Shown here in pieces: positions 4,640-15,191 of a stretch of DNA of 32,000 nucleotides. The notes under the pieces are model-generated. The model made no database searches and was not told the origin of the DNA. It saw only the letters and a list, made by a program, of their open reading frames with translations. The translations under genes were made by a program, and so were the position numbers. Origin of the DNA: Erysipelotrichaceae bacterium (lineage in GTDB: Bacteria; Bacillota_I; Bacilli_A; Erysipelotrichales; Erysipelotrichaceae); assembly GCA_963663995.1 (NCBI GenBank), contig OY760660.1:1320001-1352000 (forward strand), in the 5' to 3' direction. How positions within the stretch are numbered: the stretch's first letter is position 1; every line of letters begins with the position of its first letter.

Positions 4640-4662
4640 GAGCCACTTCCGTGGCTCTTTTT
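4639..4662. terminator. Bidirectional rho-independent terminator
   Basis: AGAGCCAC-ttcc-GTGGCTCT flanked by A/T runs, between convergent genes. Confidence 0.7.
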
Positions 4663-5536
4663 AATGAATATACTGTTTAACCAAATCTATAAATAATGAT
4701 ATTAAAGGATTTTTAGCTTTGTTGCGGTGTATTGCAACTACAGCTTGAAGAAGCTTGTTATCTTGGGCTGTTGGTATTTTTATCAATTGTTTGTTTAACA
4801 ATTTATCTTCTAAAGTAAATGATGGAAGATATGTCATTCCAAAATCATGCTCGACTAAATTAATGATACTTGGAATACTGCCAAGTTCCACTGTATGACT
4901 TATATCAATTTTTTCATTTGCACAATTTTCCTCAAAGATTTGTCTAAAGATGCAGTTAGGTTCATTAATCACAAAGGGAATTGAAATAGAATCACTAAGT
5001 AGATTAGGGTTCTCTTCATAAACTTTTGGAGATACCACACAATCCATAAGGTATAAACCTAAGCGATGAAATTCGAATATCGACATATCTTTATTAATAT
5101 TTTCATAGAATATTCCAATATCACTAGTCCCATTTTTAAGTTTGTTATATGTTTCATAACAGTTTGTTGACTTGATACTTAACTTTGCTTTAGGTGCTAA
5201 GCGATGAAATTCTTTTAGAACGGGTGCTAACTTATAACAGAGTATCGTTTCCGCAACATCAATTTCTAATGAGCCTTCTAATGGATTTTGATTAAGTTGG
5301 ATAAGATCGTTTACTGAACTTAGAACTCCATCAACATAAGGTAGTAGCGCTTTCCCATCTTTCGTCAATTTCATTTGACGTCCTATCTTTTCAAAAAGTT
5401 GGATACCCAATTCGTTTTCAATTTGTTTAATTTGAAAGGTAATGGTTGATTGAGTGTAATTCAGTTTCTGTGCAGCTTTTGAAAAACTACCTGTAACCAA
5501 GATTGTTTTAAATGTTTCTAGGTATTTTATTTCCAT
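4661..5536 (-). CDS. LysR-family transcriptional regulator
   Basis: N-terminal helix-turn-helix (LETFKTILVTGSFSKAAQKLNYTQSTITFQIKQIENELG) plus a LysR substrate-binding domain. The start is set at MEIKY, where GAAGGA lies 7 nt upstream. The track start at 5551 is a TTG. Confidence 0.9.
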   Translation of the reverse strand: MEIKYLETFKTILVTGSFSKAAQKLNYTQSTITFQIKQIENELGIQLFEKIGRQMKLTKDGKALLPYVDGVLSSVNDLIQLNQNPLEGSLEIDVAETILCYKLAPVLKEFHRLAPKAKLSIKSTNCYETYNKLKNGTSDIGIFYENINKDMSIFEFHRLGLYLMDCVVSPKVYEENPNLLSDSISIPFVINEPNCIFRQIFEENCANEKIDISHTVELGSIPSIINLVEHDFGMTYLPSFTLEDKLLNKQLIKIPTAQDNKLLQAVVAIHRNKAKNPLISLFIDLVKQYIH

Positions 5537-5640
5537 TTTAAATTCCTTCAATTTTATTGAATGATAATATCTATTATTTCAATTTGATTTAAGTATATTC
5601 TAGTCTTATCTTTAAGTAAAAGAAAGCATGGATCAAATTT

Positions 5641-6222
5641 ATGAACTATATCCTCCTCTATCTACCATATGCCTTTATAACTGCTTATACACCTGGACCA
5701 AACAATTTACTTTCATTACATTCCTATGCTCAAAACGGTTTGAAAAAAGGACTGTATACAACCTTTGGTATTCTAAGTGGTTTCTTTATAGTCATGAGTT
5801 TTACAGCTTTCATCTCAGTTGAGCTCACAACATGGGTTCCATTCATTTCCCCTTATCTTAAATACTTAGGTGTTTTATATATATTATGGTTGACTTATCA
5901 CATATTGATGAGTAAACCTTCTGAACTATCTAAAAATAATAACAACAATTTTAAAACTGCATTTTTACTGCAGTTTATGAACGTCAAAATATTTCTATAT
6001 GCCCTAACCATATATAATTCCTATATTTTGCCAAACTCCCATTCAACATCGCTTTTAATTATCAGCGTTTGTGTGAACACATTAATCGGCATCTCAGGAA
6101 CAATTGTCTGGGGCTTAACCGGTTCACTACTTCAAAAACTGCTAAAGAAACATTATAAAATACTCAATATCTTAATGGCACTCGCCTTAGTTTATTCAGC
6201 CGTTCAAATTCTTAGCGATTAA
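5641..6222 (+). CDS. eamB: LysE/RhtB-family exporter, EamB-like (cysteine/O-acetylserine efflux type)
   Basis: Close by-eye match to E. coli EamB (ITAYTPGPNN, LQFMNVKIFLY, LALVYSAVQI). It is divergent from the LysR gene. Confidence 0.75.
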   Translation: MNYILLYLPYAFITAYTPGPNNLLSLHSYAQNGLKKGLYTTFGILSGFFIVMSFTAFISVELTTWVPFISPYLKYLGVLYILWLTYHILMSKPSELSKNNNNNFKTAFLLQFMNVKIFLYALTIYNSYILPNSHSTSLLIISVCVNTLIGISGTIVWGLTGSLLQKLLKKHYKILNILMALALVYSAVQILSD

Positions 6223-8108: not shown

Positions 8109-8332
8109 CTAAACTCTCTCTTTTTCATTAAAAATAAAACACACTTTTTATAGTGCCTTTTTATAATACTCAATGTTACACCTAAAATCAAACAAAATAC
8201 GTGATAACTACACATATACGTTCAAATATCACTACATATAAATACTAGCTAGCAATTTTAAATATACAAACGATGCATATATACTAAATATTATATTATT
8301 TTTGTGAAATAAATAACTTTTAAGTGAAAACT

Positions 8333-8369: not shown

Positions 8370-8876
8370 ATGACCGCTCGCATCAATGACAAAAGCTTGA
8401 AGACCATCAATAATATTATTCTCAAGCACAAAGACAAATTAGGACCTGTAAAACTGATGTTGCATGATGTCCAACATGACCTTGGCTACATACCCTTTGA
8501 GGCTATGGAAAAGATATCAGTCGCTACAAATACACCTGTAGCAGAAATTTATGGAGTTGTGAGTTTTTATACTCAATTTACAACTGAACCTAAAGGCAAA
8601 CATGTGATTAATATCTGTATGGGTACAGCATGTTATGTAAAAGGATCACAACTTTTATTAGACCGTGTCAGTCTTCTTACCAAAGCACCAATTAATGGAA
8701 CAAGCGAAGATGGCATCTTTTCTTTAGATGCAACTCGCTGTTTAGGGGCTTGTGGACTCGCACCTGCTTGTGTACTTGATGGTCAAGTTTATGGCAATGC
8801 TAACAGTAACAAATCTTTTGAAGAAGAGTTAAAGAAAATTCTGCGCAAGGAGCTTTCTACTCGTGAAACTCACTAA
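8370..8876 (+). CDS. hydC: NuoE-like [2Fe-2S] subunit of NADH-dependent [FeFe] hydrogenase
   Basis: Thioredoxin-like 2Fe-2S pattern (ICMGTACYVKG ... CLGACGLAPA). GGGAGG ribosome-binding site. First gene of the operon. Confidence 0.85.
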   Translation: MTARINDKSLKTINNIILKHKDKLGPVKLMLHDVQHDLGYIPFEAMEKISVATNTPVAEIYGVVSFYTQFTTEPKGKHVINICMGTACYVKGSQLLLDRVSLLTKAPINGTSEDGIFSLDATRCLGACGLAPACVLDGQVYGNANSNKSFEEELKKILRKELSTRETH

Positions 8877-9234
8877 TTTATTAAATTTTATAGAAGCAGA
8901 AGCACTTACACTTCCTGAAGAAACATTTTTAGAGAATGATTTTCTCTATGTCGCAACTTCTGATTTGATGAGTGATTTATTAGCTTTAATTATCGCACCC
9001 TCTGAAAAAACTGTTCTCGTGACAGGATTAGCGAATGGTTCATCCTTAAGAACAGCTGAAATGCTAGATATACAAAATATTATTTATTGTCGCAACAAGC
9101 GCTTGAATAATGATCATGCTCAACTTGCTAAATCAATGGGCATCAATACCTTTAGCACCAAACTACCGATGTTTGATGTGATCGGTATTTTCTATCGAGA
9201 AGGATTACTTACTGCAACCCGTTTGCACAAATGA
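8863..9234 (+). CDS. DRTGG-domain-like protein (GTG start, 14-nt overlap with hydC)
   Basis: VLVTGLANGSSLRTAEMLDIQNIIY resembles the DRTGG core. The assignment is from memory of the family and was not searched. Confidence 0.55.
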   Translation: MKLTNLLNFIEAEALTLPEETFLENDFLYVATSDLMSDLLALIIAPSEKTVLVTGLANGSSLRTAEMLDIQNIIYCRNKRLNNDHAQLAKSMGINTFSTKLPMFDVIGIFYREGLLTATRLHK

Positions 9235-9665
9235 AACTTAGAACCTTTCCAATAGCGGCAAACGACTACAATAATGCCGGCACTGTATCTAGCGAACTTA
9301 AAAAATGGGCAAAGCGACAAGAATATGATCCTGTCTTCATACGACGATTTGCGATTGCTTGTTATGAAGCAGAGATTAATACCATTATTCATTCTAAAGG
9401 TGGTGTAGCCATCTTAGATTTAGATGATACTTATATCAATATTATTTTCCAAGATTTTGGACCTGGGATTGAAGATATTGAATTAGCGATGACTGTTGGT
9501 TATTCATCAGCCAGTGAGACTGCTCAAGCAATGGGTTTTGGTGCAGGTTTGGGTCTAAATAACATCAAGAAGAACGTAGACAAATTTAAACTTGAGTCTT
9601 GTTGTGAAGGAACACGTTTAACAATTGGGTTTAAGCGAATGGAGGCACTACATGAAGATCAATGA
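9231..9665 (+). CDS. RsbW/SpoIIAB-like GHKL ATPase (anti-sigma-factor-type serine kinase fold)
   Basis: N-box YEAEINTIIHS, G1 DFGPGI, G2 GFGAGLGL. ATGA overlap with the upstream gene. Confidence 0.7.
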   Translation: MKLRTFPIAANDYNNAGTVSSELKKWAKRQEYDPVFIRRFAIACYEAEINTIIHSKGGVAILDLDDTYINIIFQDFGPGIEDIELAMTVGYSSASETAQAMGFGAGLGLNNIKKNVDKFKLESCCEGTRLTIGFKRMEALHEDQ

Positions 9666-9978
9666 ATTAATTAAAGAAACAAAATGGAAACATAGCGGTT
9701 CTGATAAAAACACTGAGATTAGCGGAATCTTTGTCGGTGATTTACTTTCTTATGTCATGGGGCATGGACAAGAACGTCAAGTTTGGATCACCATGCAAAA
9801 TCATGTGAACGCCATTGGTGTCGCAAATCTAAAAGAGTTTGCAGCGATTATCTTAATTGATTCATTAGAATTTGATGAAGACTGTCTTAAAAAGGCAAAA
9901 GCTTCACATGTCTCAATTCTTACCAGTCCTTTAAACGCCGTTGATACGATCAGATCCCTTATCGATTTAGGTTTGTAG
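9652..9978 (+). CDS. Second DRTGG-like small protein
   Basis: The start is moved to the ATG at 9652, where GGAGG lies 6 nt upstream, giving a 14-nt overlap with the upstream gene. GDLLSYVM ... WITMQNHVNAIGVA pattern. Confidence 0.5.
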   Translation: MKINELIKETKWKHSGSDKNTEISGIFVGDLLSYVMGHGQERQVWITMQNHVNAIGVANLKEFAAIILIDSLEFDEDCLKKAKASHVSILTSPLNAVDTIRSLIDLGL

Positions 9979-9979
9979 T

Positions 9980-10663
9980 ATGAAATACGACTTGCACATA
10001 CACTCTGGTTTATCCCCTTGTGCTGAGGATGAAATGAGTCCTAACAATATTGTGCAGATGGCAAAACTACATCAACTTCAATTGATCTCTGTATGTGATC
10101 ATAATTCAAGCCTTCAACAAGCTCTTATTTCCAAAATAGCTAAAAAACATCATATTGACTATTGGTTTGGAATAGAAATTTGTAGTAAAGAAGATGTCCA
10201 TATCTTGGCTTACTTCAAAAAATTAGAACATATACAAAATTTACAATCCGTTATTAATACTTATATGACAAAGATTGAAAATAAAAGTGATATCTTTGGA
10301 CATCAAATCATCTATGACGAAAATGATCGTCGTATTGATGAAGTTAAAGTGCTACTCTTATCTGCCTTAAATCTTTCCTTAGAAGAATGTATTTATCTGA
10401 TTCATAAGAATCGTGGTAAAGCAGTTCTCGCTCATATCTATGGAAGAGAGAATGGTGTTATTCAACAGTTAGGATTTATTCCTCAAGATATCTATATTGA
10501 TGGGGTAGAAGTCACAAAGACTGAAGACATCAAACGCTTTGAAGAAGAATATCCACAGTATGCTAACTTACCAATCTTTATGAACTCAGATGCACATCGT
10601 TTATCCGATATTATCAAGGATCATCATGATTTGCCTTCATCTGCCCATTGGTTTCGAAAATGA
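9980..10663 (+). CDS. PHP-domain metal-dependent phosphoesterase
   Basis: YDLHIHSGLSPC ... SVCDHNS ... AHIYG ... NSDAH, typical PHP metal-binding motifs. Confidence 0.8.
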   Translation: MKYDLHIHSGLSPCAEDEMSPNNIVQMAKLHQLQLISVCDHNSSLQQALISKIAKKHHIDYWFGIEICSKEDVHILAYFKKLEHIQNLQSVINTYMTKIENKSDIFGHQIIYDENDRRIDEVKVLLLSALNLSLEECIYLIHKNRGKAVLAHIYGRENGVIQQLGFIPQDIYIDGVEVTKTEDIKRFEEEYPQYANLPIFMNSDAHRLSDIIKDHHDLPSSAHWFRK

Positions 10664-11181
10664 AAGATCTTGCTGAAGTCAGTTTAGAGCTCTTAATTAA
10701 TGCTTGTGAAGCTAAAGCCTCATACATTGATTTCGAACTAAATTTAGATCACACCAACAAACTAATCATTAAAGATAACGGCTGTGGGATAGCTGAAGAA
10801 GATTTAAAAGATATCACATCACCTTTTAAAACAAATCGAGAAACAAGAGACTGTGGCTTTGGTTTAGCTTTCTTTGCTCAAGCCATACAACAAGCCGATG
10901 GTGTCTATGAAATTAGAAGTGTTGTCAATCAAGGCACAAGCATCGAAGCATCATGGAATGCTAATCATATCGATGCTCTACCACTTGGCAATATTGGTGA
11001 AAGCATTGCTTTATGTCTACAACGAAATCCAGATTTAGATTTAAACTTTACGCTACGACATTTATCATCTATCAAAACATTTCGTAGCTGTGAAGTAAAA
11101 GAAGCCATTCATCCACTTTCAATTAGCGATATTGAAGTACTTAAGTGGATTGAAAATACAATTAATTCACTTTTTATTTGA
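10660..11181 (+). CDS. GHKL (histidine-kinase-like) ATPase, stand-alone
   Basis: ELLINACEA (N-box), DNGCGI (G1), GFGLAFF (G2). The ATG at 10660 forms an ATGA overlap with the PHP gene stop. The track start at 10648 is a TTG. Confidence 0.7.
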   Translation: MKDLAEVSLELLINACEAKASYIDFELNLDHTNKLIIKDNGCGIAEEDLKDITSPFKTNRETRDCGFGLAFFAQAIQQADGVYEIRSVVNQGTSIEASWNANHIDALPLGNIGESIALCLQRNPDLDLNFTLRHLSSIKTFRSCEVKEAIHPLSISDIEVLKWIENTINSLFI

Positions 11182-11199
11182 TTAGAAAGGAGACTATAA

Positions 11200-11580
11200 A
11201 TGAAAAGCTTAGAAGAATTAAACAAAATTCGTGAACAAGCCTTAAAACGCGTTAATTTAAGACAAGATTCACAAGACAAGTATCGTATCCTGGTCGGTAT
11301 GGCCACCTGTGGGATAGCCTCAGGTGCACGTCCTGTATTAAAAGAATTTATGAAGTGTATCGATAAAGATCCACAAGCTGTGACTGTTTCACAAACAGGT
11401 TGTGTTGGCATGTGTCAATTTGAACCTATTGTCGAAGTCATTGACCAAGAAGGTGAAAAAACAACCTACTTTAAAGTCAATCCAGATAAGGCCAAAGAAA
11501 TCTATTATGAACACATTAAAAATGGACATGTGATTGTTGAATATACACAAGCTCATTATTTAAAAGAAAGTGAGGATTAA
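11200..11580 (+). CDS. Thioredoxin-like [2Fe-2S] ferredoxin (HydD-like accessory subunit)
   Basis: MATCGIASGA ... GCVGMCQFEP pattern. AGGAG ribosome-binding site. Confidence 0.75.
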   Translation: MKSLEELNKIREQALKRVNLRQDSQDKYRILVGMATCGIASGARPVLKEFMKCIDKDPQAVTVSQTGCVGMCQFEPIVEVIDQEGEKTTYFKVNPDKAKEIYYEHIKNGHVIVEYTQAHYLKESED

Positions 11581-11582
11581 GT

Positions 11583-13379
11583 ATGGAACGGACACATATC
11601 CTTGTTTGTGCAGGAACGGGCTGTACTTCATCTAGTTCACTAGAAATTGTAAAGAGATTTGAAAAAGGTTTAATTCATCGTCATTTAGAAGATGAAGTTA
11701 AAGTAGTTCGTACCGGATGTTTTGGTCTGTGTCAAAAAGGACCTATTGTAGCGATTCATCCAGATCGAGTCTTCTATAATCATGTTTCCATTAAAGATGT
11801 TGATGAAATCTTAGATGAGCACATCTATAAAGGTCGACCAGTACAGCGATTAATGATTAATGATATTGATGAAGAAACTGAAAATAAAATCTTTGATTTT
11901 AACAAGATTCGCTTTTACGCTAAACAACATCGTATTGTTTTAAAGAACTGTGGTGTCATTAATCCTGAGGATATCACTGAATATATTGCGATGGATGGTT
12001 ATCAAGCTTTAGGTAAAGTTCTAACGACTTTCACTCCACAAGAAACAATCGATGAAATCACTAAGAGTGGTTTAAGAGGTCGTGGTGGTGGTGGGTTCCC
12101 AACCGGTAAGAAATGGCAATTCGCAGCGGACCAAAAAAATGATGATAAATACGTTATCTGTAATGCTGATGAAGGTGATCCAGGAGCTTTTATGGATCGT
12201 TCTGTTTTAGAAGGTGATCCTCATTGTGTCTTAGAAGCTATGGCTATTGCTGGTTATGCGATTGGTGCTCATACCGGTTATGTCTATATTCGAGCTGAAT
12301 ATCCGATTGCCGTTGAACGTTTGAAAATCGCAATCGCTCAAGCTCATGAATATGGTTTATTAGGAAAGAATATCTTAGGCTCAAACTTTAACTTTGATAT
12401 TGAAATAAGACTTGGAGCAGGTGCCTTTGTCTGTGGTGAAGAAACAGCGTTAATCGCATCGATTGAATCAAGACGTGGTATGCCATCCGTAAAACCTCCA
12501 TTTCCTGCTGTTAAAGGTGTTTGGGGTAAACCAACCATTATTAATAATGTTGAAACATTCGCTAATATCTGTCCAATTATTCGTCGTGGATCATCATGGT
12601 TTGCCTCTATTGGAACTGAGAAATCTAAAGGAACCAAAGTTTTTGCCTTAGGTGGCAAGATTAAAAATACGGGTCTAGTAGAAGTTCCAATGGGAACAAG
12701 TTTACGAGATGTAATCTATGAAATAGGTGGTGGGATTCCCGATAATAAGAACTTTAAAGCTGTTCAAACTGGCGGTCCTTCCGGTGGTTGTTTAACTGAA
12801 GATCATCTAGATACTCCGATTGATTTTGATAATCTTATTGCCTTAGGTTCAATGATGGGATCGGGTGGCATGATTGTCTTAGATGAAGATAATTGTATGG
12901 TTGATGTAGCACGTTTCTATATGGACTTTATCGTTGATGAATCCTGTGGAAAATGTACACCCTGTCGTATAGGAACAAAGAGAATGTTGGAATGTCTTGA
13001 AAGTATTTGTGAAGGCACTGCTACGATGGAAACTTTAACTGAGTTAGAAGATTTAGCGGCTCACGTTAAAGTCAATTCACTGTGTGGTTTAGGACAAACT
13101 GCTCCTAATCCAGTTCTATCAACTTTACGTTTATTTAAAGATGAATACTTGGCACATGTCGTTGATAAAACATGTCCTGCTCATGTATGTAAGAATCTAT
13201 TATCCTATGTGATAAATCCAGACTTATGTCGTAAATGTGGAATTTGTGCTAAGGGCTGTCCTACTTCAGCCATCTCAGGTGTATTAGGTAAAGAACCCTA
13301 TGTTATTGATGAAGAAAAATGTATACGCTGTGGAGCATGTATAACAAATTGCCCATTCGAAGTGATTGAAAGAATATAA
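11583..13379 (+). CDS. hydB: NuoF-like NADH/FMN-binding subunit of bifurcating [FeFe] hydrogenase
   Basis: N-terminal 2Fe-2S domain, GRGGGGFPTGKKW FMN/NADH site, ESCGKCTPCR 4Fe-4S motif, and a C-terminal 2x[4Fe-4S] ferredoxin domain (CRKCGICAKGCP, CIRCGACITNCP). Confidence 0.9.
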   Translation: MERTHILVCAGTGCTSSSSLEIVKRFEKGLIHRHLEDEVKVVRTGCFGLCQKGPIVAIHPDRVFYNHVSIKDVDEILDEHIYKGRPVQRLMINDIDEETENKIFDFNKIRFYAKQHRIVLKNCGVINPEDITEYIAMDGYQALGKVLTTFTPQETIDEITKSGLRGRGGGGFPTGKKWQFAADQKNDDKYVICNADEGDPGAFMDRSVLEGDPHCVLEAMAIAGYAIGAHTGYVYIRAEYPIAVERLKIAIAQAHEYGLLGKNILGSNFNFDIEIRLGAGAFVCGEETALIASIESRRGMPSVKPPFPAVKGVWGKPTIINNVETFANICPIIRRGSSWFASIGTEKSKGTKVFALGGKIKNTGLVEVPMGTSLRDVIYEIGGGIPDNKNFKAVQTGGPSGGCLTEDHLDTPIDFDNLIALGSMMGSGGMIVLDEDNCMVDVARFYMDFIVDESCGKCTPCRIGTKRMLECLESICEGTATMETLTELEDLAAHVKVNSLCGLGQTAPNPVLSTLRLFKDEYLAHVVDKTCPAHVCKNLLSYVINPDLCRKCGICAKGCPTSAISGVLGKEPYVIDEEKCIRCGACITNCPFEVIERI

Positions 13380-13388
13380 GGAGGGAAA

Positions 13389-15158
13389 ATGATGAAAAAA
13401 GTAAATATAAGCATTAATCATAAAAACTATGAAGTCGACTCAAATTTAACTGTTCTTGAAGCAGCTCGAAGTGTTGGCATTAGCATTCCTACCTTATGTT
13501 TCTTAAAAGATATCAATGAGACTAGTGCTTGTCGTGTTTGTGTGGTTGAAGTCAAAAATGCCCGTAGTTTAGTCACTGCTTGTTCATATCCTGTAACTGA
13601 GGGTATGGAAGTTTTGACCCATAGTGGAAAAGTCATTGATTCACGTAAGAAAACTGTTGAGCTTATCTTATCTAATCATTCCAAAGATTGTTTAGCATGT
13701 GTACGTAATCAAAACTGTGAACTACAAAATATTAGCCAAGATTTAAACATTCGTGATATTCCGTTTCAAAATGGGGCTAAGACAAGCCCTACCTTTGATG
13801 AAGTAGCTGATGGAATCGTTAGAGATACCTCTAAATGTATCTTATGTGGTCGTTGTATTGAGATGTGCAAACAAGCTCAAGGTTTAGGGATATTAAACTT
13901 TATTGGACGTGGTTTTGAGACAAAAGTAGGTCCTGTATTTGACGCCAGTTTTAATGATGTGAACTGTATGCAATGTGGTCAATGTGTCACAGTTTGTCCG
14001 GTTGGTGCTTTAAGTGAAAAAGAAGAAATACACAATGTGATTAATGCCTTAAATGATCCACAAAAAACAGTTGTGGTACAAACGGCACCCGCCATACGTG
14101 CTAGTTTAGGTGAAGAATTTAATATGCCAATTGGTTCACGTGTGACTGGGAAAATGGTAAGTGCTTTAAGACGTATTGGATTTGATCGTGTTTATGATAC
14201 AAATTACGCTGCAGATTTAACCATCATGGAGGAAGGTACAGAGTTTATCCATCGTTTTAAAGATGGTGGTACGCTTCCACTGATTACATCTTGTTCTCCT
14301 GGATGGATTAGATACATGGAATATGAATACCCTGATCTTATCCCCAATATTTCAAGCTGTAAGAGTCCACATATGATGTTTGGAGCTATTCTAAAGTCTT
14401 ACTTTGCTGAAACTAAAGAATTAAACCCTGATGATGTTTATGTGGTTTCAATAATGCCTTGTACTGCCAAAAAGGTCGAAAAAAATCGAATCGATGAACA
14501 TATGGAAAGAGTCGATGTTGATGCTGTACTGACCACCAGAGAATTAGGTAAACTGATTAAACTCTATGGTTTAGATTTTGTGAACTTACCTGATGAAGAA
14601 TTTGACCAAGATATGTTTGGTGAATACACCGGTGCCGCTGCTTTGTTTGGGGCATCAGGTGGTGTTATGGAAGCAGCTCTTAGAACTGTGACTGAAATCT
14701 TAACCGAAAAACCTTTAGATAATGTCGACTTTGAAATCGTAAGAGGACATGAAGGTGTTAAAGAAGCTACTTTAGATATTAATGGGACTGAAGTAAGAGT
14801 CGCCGTTGCCCATAGTATGAAACTCGCAAAACCACTACTCGATCAAATAAGAGCTGGTACTTCTCCTTATGCCTTTATTGAAATCATGGGATGTCCTGGT
14901 GGGTGCATAAATGGTGGTGGTCAATCAATCGTTAGTGCGAATGTACGTAATCGTATTGGAAATGACTATATGAGACTTAGGGCGAACGCTATGTATGATG
15001 AAGATAAATCCAGAACTTATCGTAAATCGCATGAAAACAAGCAAGTTCAAGAGCTCTATGATAATTTCTTGGAAAAACCAGGTTCTCATATCGCCCATAA
15101 TTTACTCCATACACATTACAGTGCAAAAGACCGTTATAAAGTCTTTAGAAATGATTAA
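13389..15158 (+). CDS. hydA: [FeFe] hydrogenase catalytic subunit (CpI-like architecture)
   Basis: N-terminal 2Fe-2S, His-ligated 4Fe-4S (HSKDCLACVRNQNC) and two ferredoxin 4Fe-4S motifs. H-cluster motifs TSCSPGW (variant), MPCTAKKVE and EIMGCPGGCINGGGQ. Confidence 0.9.
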   Translation: MMKKVNISINHKNYEVDSNLTVLEAARSVGISIPTLCFLKDINETSACRVCVVEVKNARSLVTACSYPVTEGMEVLTHSGKVIDSRKKTVELILSNHSKDCLACVRNQNCELQNISQDLNIRDIPFQNGAKTSPTFDEVADGIVRDTSKCILCGRCIEMCKQAQGLGILNFIGRGFETKVGPVFDASFNDVNCMQCGQCVTVCPVGALSEKEEIHNVINALNDPQKTVVVQTAPAIRASLGEEFNMPIGSRVTGKMVSALRRIGFDRVYDTNYAADLTIMEEGTEFIHRFKDGGTLPLITSCSPGWIRYMEYEYPDLIPNISSCKSPHMMFGAILKSYFAETKELNPDDVYVVSIMPCTAKKVEKNRIDEHMERVDVDAVLTTRELGKLIKLYGLDFVNLPDEEFDQDMFGEYTGAAALFGASGGVMEAALRTVTEILTEKPLDNVDFEIVRGHEGVKEATLDINGTEVRVAVAHSMKLAKPLLDQIRAGTSPYAFIEIMGCPGGCINGGGQSIVSANVRNRIGNDYMRLRANAMYDEDKSRTYRKSHENKQVQELYDNFLEKPGSHIAHNLLHTHYSAKDRYKVFRND

Positions 15159-15177
15159 ACGCCTTCGGGCGTTTTTT
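15158..15177 (+). terminator. Rho-independent terminator of the hydrogenase operon
   Basis: AACGCC-ttcg-GGCGTT followed by TTTT. Confidence 0.75.
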
Positions 15178-15191
15178 GATATGCTTATCTT

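Follow-up and report, generated by a model that had tools for sequence, protein, structure and literature searches.

Genes annotated as "histidine kinase," "anti-sigma factor Ser/Thr kinase," and "PHP domain protein" have been listed near the bifurcating hydrogenases of thermophilic Clostridia (PMC4237134, PMC3561251, PMC3608648, PMC3492117, PMC8163306). Because of such a neighborhood, the M2e or group-D hydrogenases have been classed as sensory (PMC4237134, PMC3561251, PMC3608648, PMC3492117), and kinases and phosphatases near hydrogenases have been speculated to regulate transcription (PMC3492117). One group-D protein, TamHydS from Thermoanaerobacter mathranii, has been characterized spectroscopically (PMC8163306), and a follow-up study of April 2026 still called the signaling partners of group-D HydS unknown and described the identification of the partners of TamHydS as critical (PMC13104023). 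Here, we analyze five small genes of this kind that lie inside an [FeFe] hydrogenase (hyd) operon in a 32-kb stretch of DNA from an Erysipelotrichaceae bacterium (GenBank assembly GCA_963663995.1, contig OY760660.1, positions 1,320,001 to 1,352,000), hereafter the window. The operon comprises nine consecutive open reading frames (ORFs; window positions 8370–15158, + strand), and the five genes encode, in order, a DRTGG protein (D1), a GHKL ATPase (K1), a second DRTGG protein (D2), a PHP-family phosphoesterase (PHP), and a second GHKL ATPase (K2). Our analyses indicate that these five genes are most likely a functional, sensor-less copy of a conserved signaling cassette.

The closest described counterpart is the neighborhood of the group-D HydS proteins (M2e; apparently "group C1" of HydDB), exemplified by TamHydS, Cthe_0335, TTE0887, and Halsa_1868. 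The order D1-K1-...-D2-PHP-[NuoE]-K2-HydD-NuoF-HydA is found in Caldanaerobius, in Thermoanaerobacteraceae, and at many loci, whereas the window lacks a HydS gene and its K1 and D2 genes overlap by 14 nucleotides (nt). The window cassette is the group-D HydS neighborhood, as known at the level of annotation, minus its sensor. In the searchable literature (subscription-only papers lay outside the search), we found no description of the whole five-gene cassette, of the DRTGG proteins in it, of its association with Rnf-, Etf-, and formate dehydrogenase-type enzymes, or of the fusions of CBS domains to K1, and no functional characterization of the set, as an initial annotation of this DNA had supposed.

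Other systems resemble the cassette in part. The partner-switching modules SpoIIAB-SpoIIAA-SpoIIE and RsbW-RsbV-RsbU/P share with it a small SpoIIAB/RsbW-type GHKL kinase with intact N-box, G1, and G2 motifs, small single-domain partners with an invariant serine at a helix N terminus, a dedicated phosphoesterase, and genes that are cotranscribed and translationally coupled. The cassette differs in that it has the DRTGG fold instead of a STAS antagonist, its only hydrolase is a PHP protein and not a PP2C phosphatase (SpoIIE/RsbU), no sigma factor is encoded in the cassette or the window, and it includes an extra, possibly MutL-like, GHKL protein. The group-C (M2f) HydS systems (Thermotoga maritima HydS, Ruminococcus albus HydS, and Thermoanaerobacterium hfs) also place a hydrogenase-like sensor and kinase/phosphatase genes beside a bifurcating hydrogenase, but they use PAS, PP2C, and Hanks-type or histidine kinases where the cassette has DRTGG, SpoIIAB-like, PHP, and GHL-like proteins, and the window has no sensor. 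The CBS-DRTGG insert of family II pyrophosphatases shares the DRTGG fold and an association with CBS domains, the latter seen in six CBS-K1 cassettes; in contrast, the DRTGG proteins of the cassette stand alone, carry the motifs DLMSD or DLLS, and have TGL-x-N in place of the canonical TGGDR. Finally, control of hyd operons by Rex, a repressor that senses NADH/NAD+, is established in Clostridia, and a Rex-box-like palindrome precedes the window operon. This transcriptional input is, however, encoded elsewhere and leaves the five cassette proteins unexplained.

Results

The Cassette Recurs beside Enzymes That Handle Ferredoxin

A scan with one genome per GTDB species returned at least 600 candidates, of which at least 419 proved to be relatives of the window PHP protein. 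We annotated the loci of the best 80 of these at least 419, together with 7 loci fetched through exact protein look-up, using cassette and redox models built for the analysis; cassette counts are given over 85 loci. Each of the five genes has hundreds of homologs, and carriers of the cassette were found in at least nine phyla, including Bacillota, Bacteroidota, Nitrospirota, Desulfobacterota, Planctomycetota, Acidobacteriota, Bipolaricaulota, Caldiserica, and Fidelibacterota.

The recurring gene order is D1-K1-[group-D HydS]-D2-PHP-[NuoE]-K2. D1 lies directly before K1 in 67 of 75 loci and D2 directly before PHP in 79 of 85. A HydS-like [FeFe] hydrogenase of 390 to 460 residues follows K1 in 53 of 75 loci, while in 21 K1 is followed directly by D2. 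K2 comes after PHP in 54 loci and after NuoE in 19; the gene directly downstream of K2 is that of HydD in 41 loci and rnfC in 8. A defense or toxin–antitoxin function is unlikely because this synteny with redox enzymes is rigid across phyla.

The initial annotation had hypothesized that the cassette acts on the hydrogenase complex HydABC. Indeed, the cassette adjoins HydABC-type genes in 51 loci, but it also adjoins rnfCDGEAB in 9, with or without HydS (both counts include one duplicate pair, L001/L002, and part of the HydA calls are FdhA-like proteins and not hydrogenases). At single loci it precedes genes for Bcd, EtfB, and a ferredoxin-fused EtfA (L030, 11150–14450), adjoins a molybdopterin oxidoreductase gene (L013), precedes a nuo operon whose first gene is nuoA and which lacks nuoEFG (nuoABCDHI, the 11-subunit type; L050, 3233–7573), or stands behind a PFOR gene (L078, 5188–8718). 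In Bfu-type clusters it is found with FdhA-like molybdopterin subunits, NuoF-GltD fusions, and a NuoG-N/Pyr_redox_2 protein. The shared theme is enzymes that handle ferredoxin, mostly together with NAD(H). The cassette is not hydrogenase-specific, and an action on the HydABC complex alone is therefore too narrow a description.

The input side of the cassette varies. In six HydS-less loci from four phyla (L018, L031, L032, L041, L043, and L074), a pair of CBS domains is fused to the N terminus of K1, giving a protein of ∼315 residues; in these loci the cassette sits between NuoE-HydD-NuoF and the catalytic subunit. PHP and K2 are fused at one locus (L041), and a HATPase_c domain fused to a HydS-type hydrogenase has been reported in Hydrogenedentota (PMC11406978). 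Thus, the inputs are interchangeable, being HydS, a CBS pair, or none, and the three kinds of fusion (CBS-K1, PHP-K2, and HATPase_c-hydrogenase) suggest two submodules, sensor-K1-D1 and D2-PHP-K2.

In Clostridia-type loci, most of them Rnf-linked (L002, 7976–8824; L004, 5822–6748; L005, 4787–5569; also L010, L011, L019, L028, L030, and L073), D1 is directly preceded by an additional gene, here termed U1, which encodes a protein of 250 to 310 residues with no Pfam match. U1 is absent from the window.

D1 and D2 Carry an Invariant Serine on a DRTGG Fold

Taken singly, the window DRTGG proteins are hard to recognize. D1 has no Pfam match, and D2 matches DRTGG at 1.4e-3 to 1.8e-3, which is under the Pfam cutoff. 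Among their orthologs, however, PF07085 is matched by 22 of 26 D1 and 29 of 31 D2 proteins. BLASTP finds no match between D1 and D2, whereas comparison of their profiles with hhalign gives a probability of 99.8% (E = 2e-28). D1 and D2 are thus paralogs whose relationship is visible by profile–profile comparison only. The AlphaFold model of D1, with a predicted local distance difference test score (pLDDT) of 93, is closest in fold to the DRTGG structures 3l2b and 2ioj (template modeling [TM] scores 0.67 to 0.75).

The D1 family contains 1335 representatives at 50% identity, nearly all of them stand-alone proteins of 115 to 125 residues. One deviating protein, P0281 (389 residues), combines an N-terminal hydrophobic segment and a region that by eye looks SPOR-like with a D1 domain. 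D1 proteins are marked by the subfamily-specific, invariant motif DLMSD, as well as by TGL and RT motifs; Ser37 of DLMSD is kept in 150 of 151 cluster representatives. D2 has the corresponding invariant motif DLLS, with the serine present in all 79 D2 proteins aligned. The serine-containing motifs are subfamily-specific and absent from the canonical DRTGG protein AF1212. In the D1 model, Ser37 lies at the N terminus of helix 36–42, and a serine in such a position is the geometry of the phospho-serines of SpoIIAA and HPr.

An "AraC-family regulator" has been described as flanking TamHydS (PMC8163306). It was not reproduced as a feature of the family; in our loci the gene downstream of HydS is D2, and D1 lies before K1. 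Pfam scans of the D1 and D2 orthologs gave no DNA-binding family.

K1 Resembles SpoIIAB, and K2 May Resemble MutL-Type ATPases

The window K1 protein matches HATPase_c_2 (6.9e-5) and the NCBIfam SpoIIAB model (1e-8). When the K1 family profile was compared with solved structures, SpoIIAB was the best match (3e-11), and RsbW was also matched (9e-4). The N-box (E46 and N50), G1 (D75xGxG), and G2 (G102xGxGxG) motifs are invariant in 30 to 75 orthologs.

The window PHP protein falls slightly below the Pfam threshold for PF02811 (4.8e-5; 24.2 bits versus a cutoff of 26.4), but most of its homologs match this family. The metal ligands H6, H8, D40-H41, E66, H74, H152, D204, and H206 are invariant in 20 diverse homologs, and the subfamily has an invariant cysteine of its own, Cys14, within the motif LSPC. 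Among proteins of solved structure, PHP is closest to EndoQ, RNase AM, and phosphoesterases of the type of the 3′,5′-bisphosphate nucleotidase Cv1693, at ∼1e-8.

K2 is the only one of the five window proteins to score above a Pfam cutoff, with matches to HATPase_c (2.8e-13), HATPase_c_3 (1.9e-6), and NCBIfam MutL (1e-6). It has a C-terminal extension of ∼70 residues, for which a STAS-like role was considered and set aside. Residues N18, D43xGxG, and G70xG are invariant in ortholog alignments. K2 has no conserved histidine; a semi-conserved one, present in 80% of orthologs, is a valine in the window. In the AlphaFold model of K2 (pLDDT 89), the top folds are the N-terminal ATPase regions of MutL and PMS2, which align over the full K2 length (170 to 200 columns) with TM scores of only 0.5 to 0.6, while the catalytic domains of histidine kinases cover only ∼100 columns. 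K2 has no transducer domain. Judged by this model, the fold of K2 seems nearer to that of GHL ATPases such as MutL than to that of a histidine kinase.

The five domain assignments of the initial annotation hold at the level of family and fold but are weak for the window proteins considered alone, and its term "kinase/phosphatase-like" fits K1 and PHP better than K2. Pfam and NCBIfam scans found no HisKA/DHp or Response_reg match in any of the five proteins, so that the histidine phosphotransfer and receiver pair that marks a two-component system is missing; with STAS and PP2C proteins also lacking, the cassette is neither a two-component system nor a textbook partner switch, as had been noted.

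The Window Lineage Appears to Have Lost HydS

The gene order of the window is that of its Erysipelotrichaceae relatives minus HydS, which is not present between K1 and D2, and HydA is the sole H-cluster protein encoded in the 32-kb window. In a rough neighbor-joining tree of PHP proteins, the window and L003 fall inside an Erysipelotrichaceae clade, and the other seven members of that clade carry HydS. From gene order and tree, it appears that the lineage of the window lost HydS. The same HydS-less nine-gene operon is found in L086, which is syntenic with the window (PHP 75% identical), and in L087 (PHP 59% identical). This layout has been retained in four lineages, down to ∼50% identity, and HydS-less cassettes arose several times in other phyla.

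The remaining genes bear the marks of continued selection. All reading frames in the window cassette are intact, and every family-invariant residue is kept. Between the window and L086, the ratio of nonsynonymous to synonymous substitution rates (dN/dS) is 0.03 to 0.21 for the five cassette genes and 0.03 to 0.06 for the structural genes, values that are rough since dS is near saturation. Cassette proteins are 75 to 87% identical to those of L086, compared to 94 to 96% for the structural subunits. A comparison aimed at residues conserved only in HydS-carrying cassettes, which would be candidate contact sites, yielded nothing convincing, only three marginal columns. Because the cassette has been under purifying selection and has kept its invariant residues after the loss, and HydS-only residues were not found, the core of the cassette would seem to work without HydS.

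Operon Layout and Transcription

The features of the operon are listed in Table 1. The five ORFs lie between NuoE and HydD-NuoF-HydA, and the motifs quoted for them in the initial annotation are found in their translations. Their start codons were chosen with support from homolog alignments. For D2, the mechanical ORF list gives a TTG at 9625, and the ATG at 9652 is preferred; K2 has an alternative start, TTG, at 10648.

Table 1. Features of the nine-gene hyd operon (window positions)
Feature	Position	Strand	Evidence and remarks
Rex-operator-like palindrome ATGTTAATATATTAACAA	8333..8350	.	20 nt upstream of nuoE start
HydC / NuoE-like [2Fe-2S] subunit, first gene of operon	8370..8876	+	PF01257 1.4e-37; GGAGG ribosome-binding site
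D1, stand-alone DRTGG-fold protein, 123 residues	8863..9234	+	GTG start; AAGGAG upstream
K1, SpoIIAB/RsbW-like GHKL serine-kinase-type ATPase, 144 residues	9231..9665	+	HATPase_c_2, NCBIfam SpoIIAB
D2, second stand-alone DRTGG protein, 108 residues	9652..9978	+	ATG, GGAGG 7 nt upstream
PHP-family metal-dependent phosphoesterase, 227 residues	9980..10663	+	PF02811 4.8e-5
K2, stand-alone GHKL ATPase, 173 residues	10660..11181	+	ATG start; HATPase_c 2.8e-13
HydD-like thioredoxin-type [2Fe-2S] ferredoxin	11200..11580	+	PF01257 6.3e-5; NCBIfam 2Fe-2S ferredoxin
HydB / NuoF-like subunit (NADH, FMN, Fe-S binding)	11583..13379	+	Complex1_51K 1.8e-47; NADH_4Fe-4S 8.9e-33
HydA, catalytic subunit, NADH-dependent (bifurcating-type) [FeFe] hydrogenase	13389..15158	+	NF040763 872 bits (cutoff 765); Fe_hyd_lg_C 4e-93
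Intrinsic terminator closing the nine-gene operon	15157..15182	+	15157–15174 plus T-run; 7-bp stem, 4 G-C pairs

NuoE-like, NuoF-like, and HydA (H-cluster) subunits, the defining set of a HydABC [FeFe] hydrogenase, are all encoded in this one operon, and by gene content the window hydrogenase is predicted to be of the electron-bifurcating type. Successive cassette junctions are a 14-nt overlap (nuoE/D1), ATGA (D1/K1), a 14-nt overlap (K1/D2), a 1-nt gap (D2/PHP), and ATGA (PHP/K2), exactly as first described. D1 and D2 have Shine-Dalgarno sequences of their own, and the ATGA-joined K1 and K2 have none, which fits termination–reinitiation and the synthesis of two protein pairs, D1/K1 and PHP/K2. 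In a terminator scan of the + strand, the single convincing terminator follows hydA, and a weak match within nuoF, at 12768, is in the range expected by chance (6 sites found, 4.4 expected). The junctions and the single terminator support the cotranscription and translational coupling that had been proposed. The initial annotation had noted the lack of such partners in the five-gene set, and the 32-kb window likewise contains no STAS protein, sigma factor, receiver, or helix-turn-helix partner; nor does it contain a HydS or HydEFG gene, the remainder being housekeeping genes.

The Rex operator consensus TTGTTAAN4TTAACAA is matched in the window only by the palindrome ATGTTAATATATTAACAA, which deviates from it at 1 position. 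Taken alone it is non-significant at the 2-mismatch setting (0.8 expected by chance), but the position of the motif in related loci makes it meaningful. Specifically, 9 of 12 Rex-like matches with at most 1 mismatch in 1.35 Mb of related loci sit 37 to 244 nt upstream of nuoE or D1; the motif has this placement in 8 related loci. In several of these 8 loci it lies between PHP and nuoE, splitting the cassette into two transcription units. In the window, ATGTTAATATATTAACAA is likely an NADH/NAD+-responsive transcriptional control site for the whole operon, and the cassette and hydC-hydD-hydB-hydA are probably transcribed from one Rex-controlled promoter. Just upstream of the Rex-like box, the AT-rich hyd promoter contains a direct repeat, GTGAAA...GTGAAA, with the copies ∼22 nt apart (8300–8330).

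Other Features of the Window

Outside the operon, a T-box leader (114 bits; 23009–23223, + strand) directly precedes two ORFs, 23222–24427 and 24427–24828, which encode a COG1900-type homocysteine-biosynthesis protein (PF01837) and a NIL-domain ferredoxin. The release factor 2 gene prfB (∼18514–17411, − strand) has the CTT TGA C sequence of classic programmed +1 frameshifting ∼70 nt after the ATG at 18514; the mechanical ORF list gives its downstream frame only (348 residues, TTG start). Two adjacent paralogous ORFs of ∼155 residues at 16471–17408 (− strand) are joined by an ATGA overlap, and their equivalents in L086 are annotated as GNAT acetyltransferases. A divergent pair encoding a LysR-type regulator and a LysE-family exporter (4661–6222) is absent from the otherwise syntenic L086 locus.

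Discussion

The initial annotation proposed a nucleotide- or phosphorylation-dependent post-translational gate, or an assembly checkpoint, acting on HydABC. Of these, a gate stays our best guess and is better supported than an assembly checkpoint, although its target would not be HydABC only. We lean, tentatively and with a confidence that stops a little short of even, toward the cassette as a partner-switch-like, ATP-dependent, post-translational regulator of NADH/ferredoxin enzymes. Sequence features were seen for the steps assigned to K1, the DRTGG proteins, and K2, and every mechanistic step is one that we infer. K1, in the manner of SpoIIAB and RsbW, would both phosphorylate serine at the expense of ATP and serve as a binding partner. 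The part of the STAS antagonist would fall to the DRTGG paralogs, whose invariant serine (DLMSD and DLLS) is a candidate phospho-acceptor or docking site. PHP, paired with D2, would reset the state, the role of PP2C, and K2 would be a MutL-like ATP switch and the element closest to the output. The output may be a post-translational modulation of the activity or assembly state of an NADH/ferredoxin enzyme, because the cassette has no DNA-binding part; moreover, with a likely NADH/NAD+ input through Rex already acting on transcription, a post-translational role is the more economical one for the cassette. In the window, the GHKL proteins themselves would probably provide the input by sensing the adenylate state, since HydS appears to have been lost and the CBS pair is absent.

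Several points weigh against this proposal. D1 and D2 have the DRTGG and not the STAS fold, STAS structures being absent from the top 50 fold matches, and we know of no DRTGG protein that is phosphorylated. The nearest solved relatives of PHP are nucleic acid or nucleotide phosphoesterases and not protein phosphatases of the CpsB/YwqE kind. K2, judged from its model, may be more like a GHL clamp than a kinase, and its place at the output is guessed from the order of the genes. Roughly one cassette in four has no adjacent redox enzyme or lies on a cut contig, and for this reason action in trans or on a different target is possible. It is also possible that HydS is encoded elsewhere in the source genome, our view being of the 32-kb window.

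Among the alternatives, the cassette could act on transcription, with K1 an anti-sigma factor or anti-regulator that sequesters an unlinked factor, D1 or D2 its antagonist, and the expression of hyd, rnf, and related operons, not enzyme activity, the thing that is set. The closest characterized relatives of K1 are indeed the anti-sigma kinases SpoIIAB and RsbW, many cassettes lie upstream of the neighboring operon with a spacing of 150 to 280 nt that suits promoter control (K2-rnfC in L002 and L004), and a transcriptional role was the earlier speculation (PMC3492117). We nevertheless consider it unlikely. No sigma factor or DNA-binding gene accompanies the cassette in the 85 loci, as annotated with the cassette and redox models, or in the window; in the window and about a quarter of the loci, cassette genes lie inside the structural operon, overlapping or nearly abutting its genes (NuoE-K2-HydD); and a plausible Rex operator already covers transcription. 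Rather improbable, too, is a role in nucleotide-signal processing, in which PHP would hydrolyze pAp, Ap4A, or a short oligonucleotide and the DRTGG and GHKL proteins would be nucleotide-responsive adaptors that couple the adenylate or alarmone state without protein phosphorylation. Such a role would suit the kinship of PHP with RNase AM, EndoQ, and Cv1693, the CBS-K1 fusions in six loci, and the fact that DRTGG is best known from inside the CBS-pyrophosphatase regulated by adenine nucleotides and Ap4A. Yet K1 retains the full set of SpoIIAB-type kinase motifs, the invariant serine of D1 and D2 has no obvious part in nucleotide binding, and in the CBS-pyrophosphatase the ligand reportedly sits on the CBS domains and not on DRTGG (Tuominen et al., in 2010), which counts against this reading.

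That K2 and its partners serve instead as assembly or maturation helpers, chaperoning the insertion of cofactors into flavin/Fe-S modules of the NuoEF or RnfC type or the assembly of their oligomers, is suggested by the resemblance of the K2 fold to the GHL ATPases, which are ATP-driven clamps, and by the position of K2 immediately before HydD or RnfC. We regard this as quite improbable: swappable inputs (HydS, CBS), like a SpoIIAB-like kinase, are typical of signaling and not of maturation, the cassette also accompanies enzymes without a NuoF or RnfC subunit (Bcd-Etf, PFOR, and the 11-subunit Nuo), and HydABC of cassette-carrying organisms has reportedly been purified and heterologously expressed without cassette proteins. 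Finally, the four or five genes left after the loss of HydS might be decaying, nonfunctional passengers, since the window lacks a sensor gene that all its closest outgroup relatives have and the cassette proteins evolve faster than the structural subunits. The intact frames, the invariant residues kept, the low dN/dS values, the persistence of the HydS-less layout in four lineages, and the repeated origin of HydS-less cassettes in other phyla bring this last explanation close to refutation.

Beyond the tentative reading of the cassette as a partner-switch-like regulator lies a wider one, which we hold to be doubtful at present. The cassette may represent a new class of partner switching, with DRTGG for STAS and PHP for PP2C, whose swappable inputs are group-D HydS for molecular hydrogen (H2), CBS domains for adenylates, or none, and which would control the ferredoxin/NADH node (HydABC, Rnf, Bcd-Etf, and Bfu-type formate dehydrogenases and transhydrogenases) at the post-translational level, in the manner of a general valve. 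If so, the sensor-less form in the window would show that the core senses the energy state of the cell by itself.

The balance of reduced ferredoxin, NADH, and H2 in anaerobes is central to fermentation, syntrophy, acetogenesis, and the hydrogen economy of the gut and rumen. Our analysis defines the candidate signaling partners of group-D HydS as a rigid five-protein cassette, which makes HydS signaling and the control of the ferredoxin/NADH node testable. The cassette is independent of both the sensor and the hydrogenase, in that it survives the loss of HydS, can use a CBS pair, and is wired to several NADH/ferredoxin enzymes. If the proposed regulation is correct, engineering of the cassette would be a means of altering the yields of H2 or ethanol in Clostridium thermocellum, Thermoanaerobacterium, and Caldicellulosiruptor.

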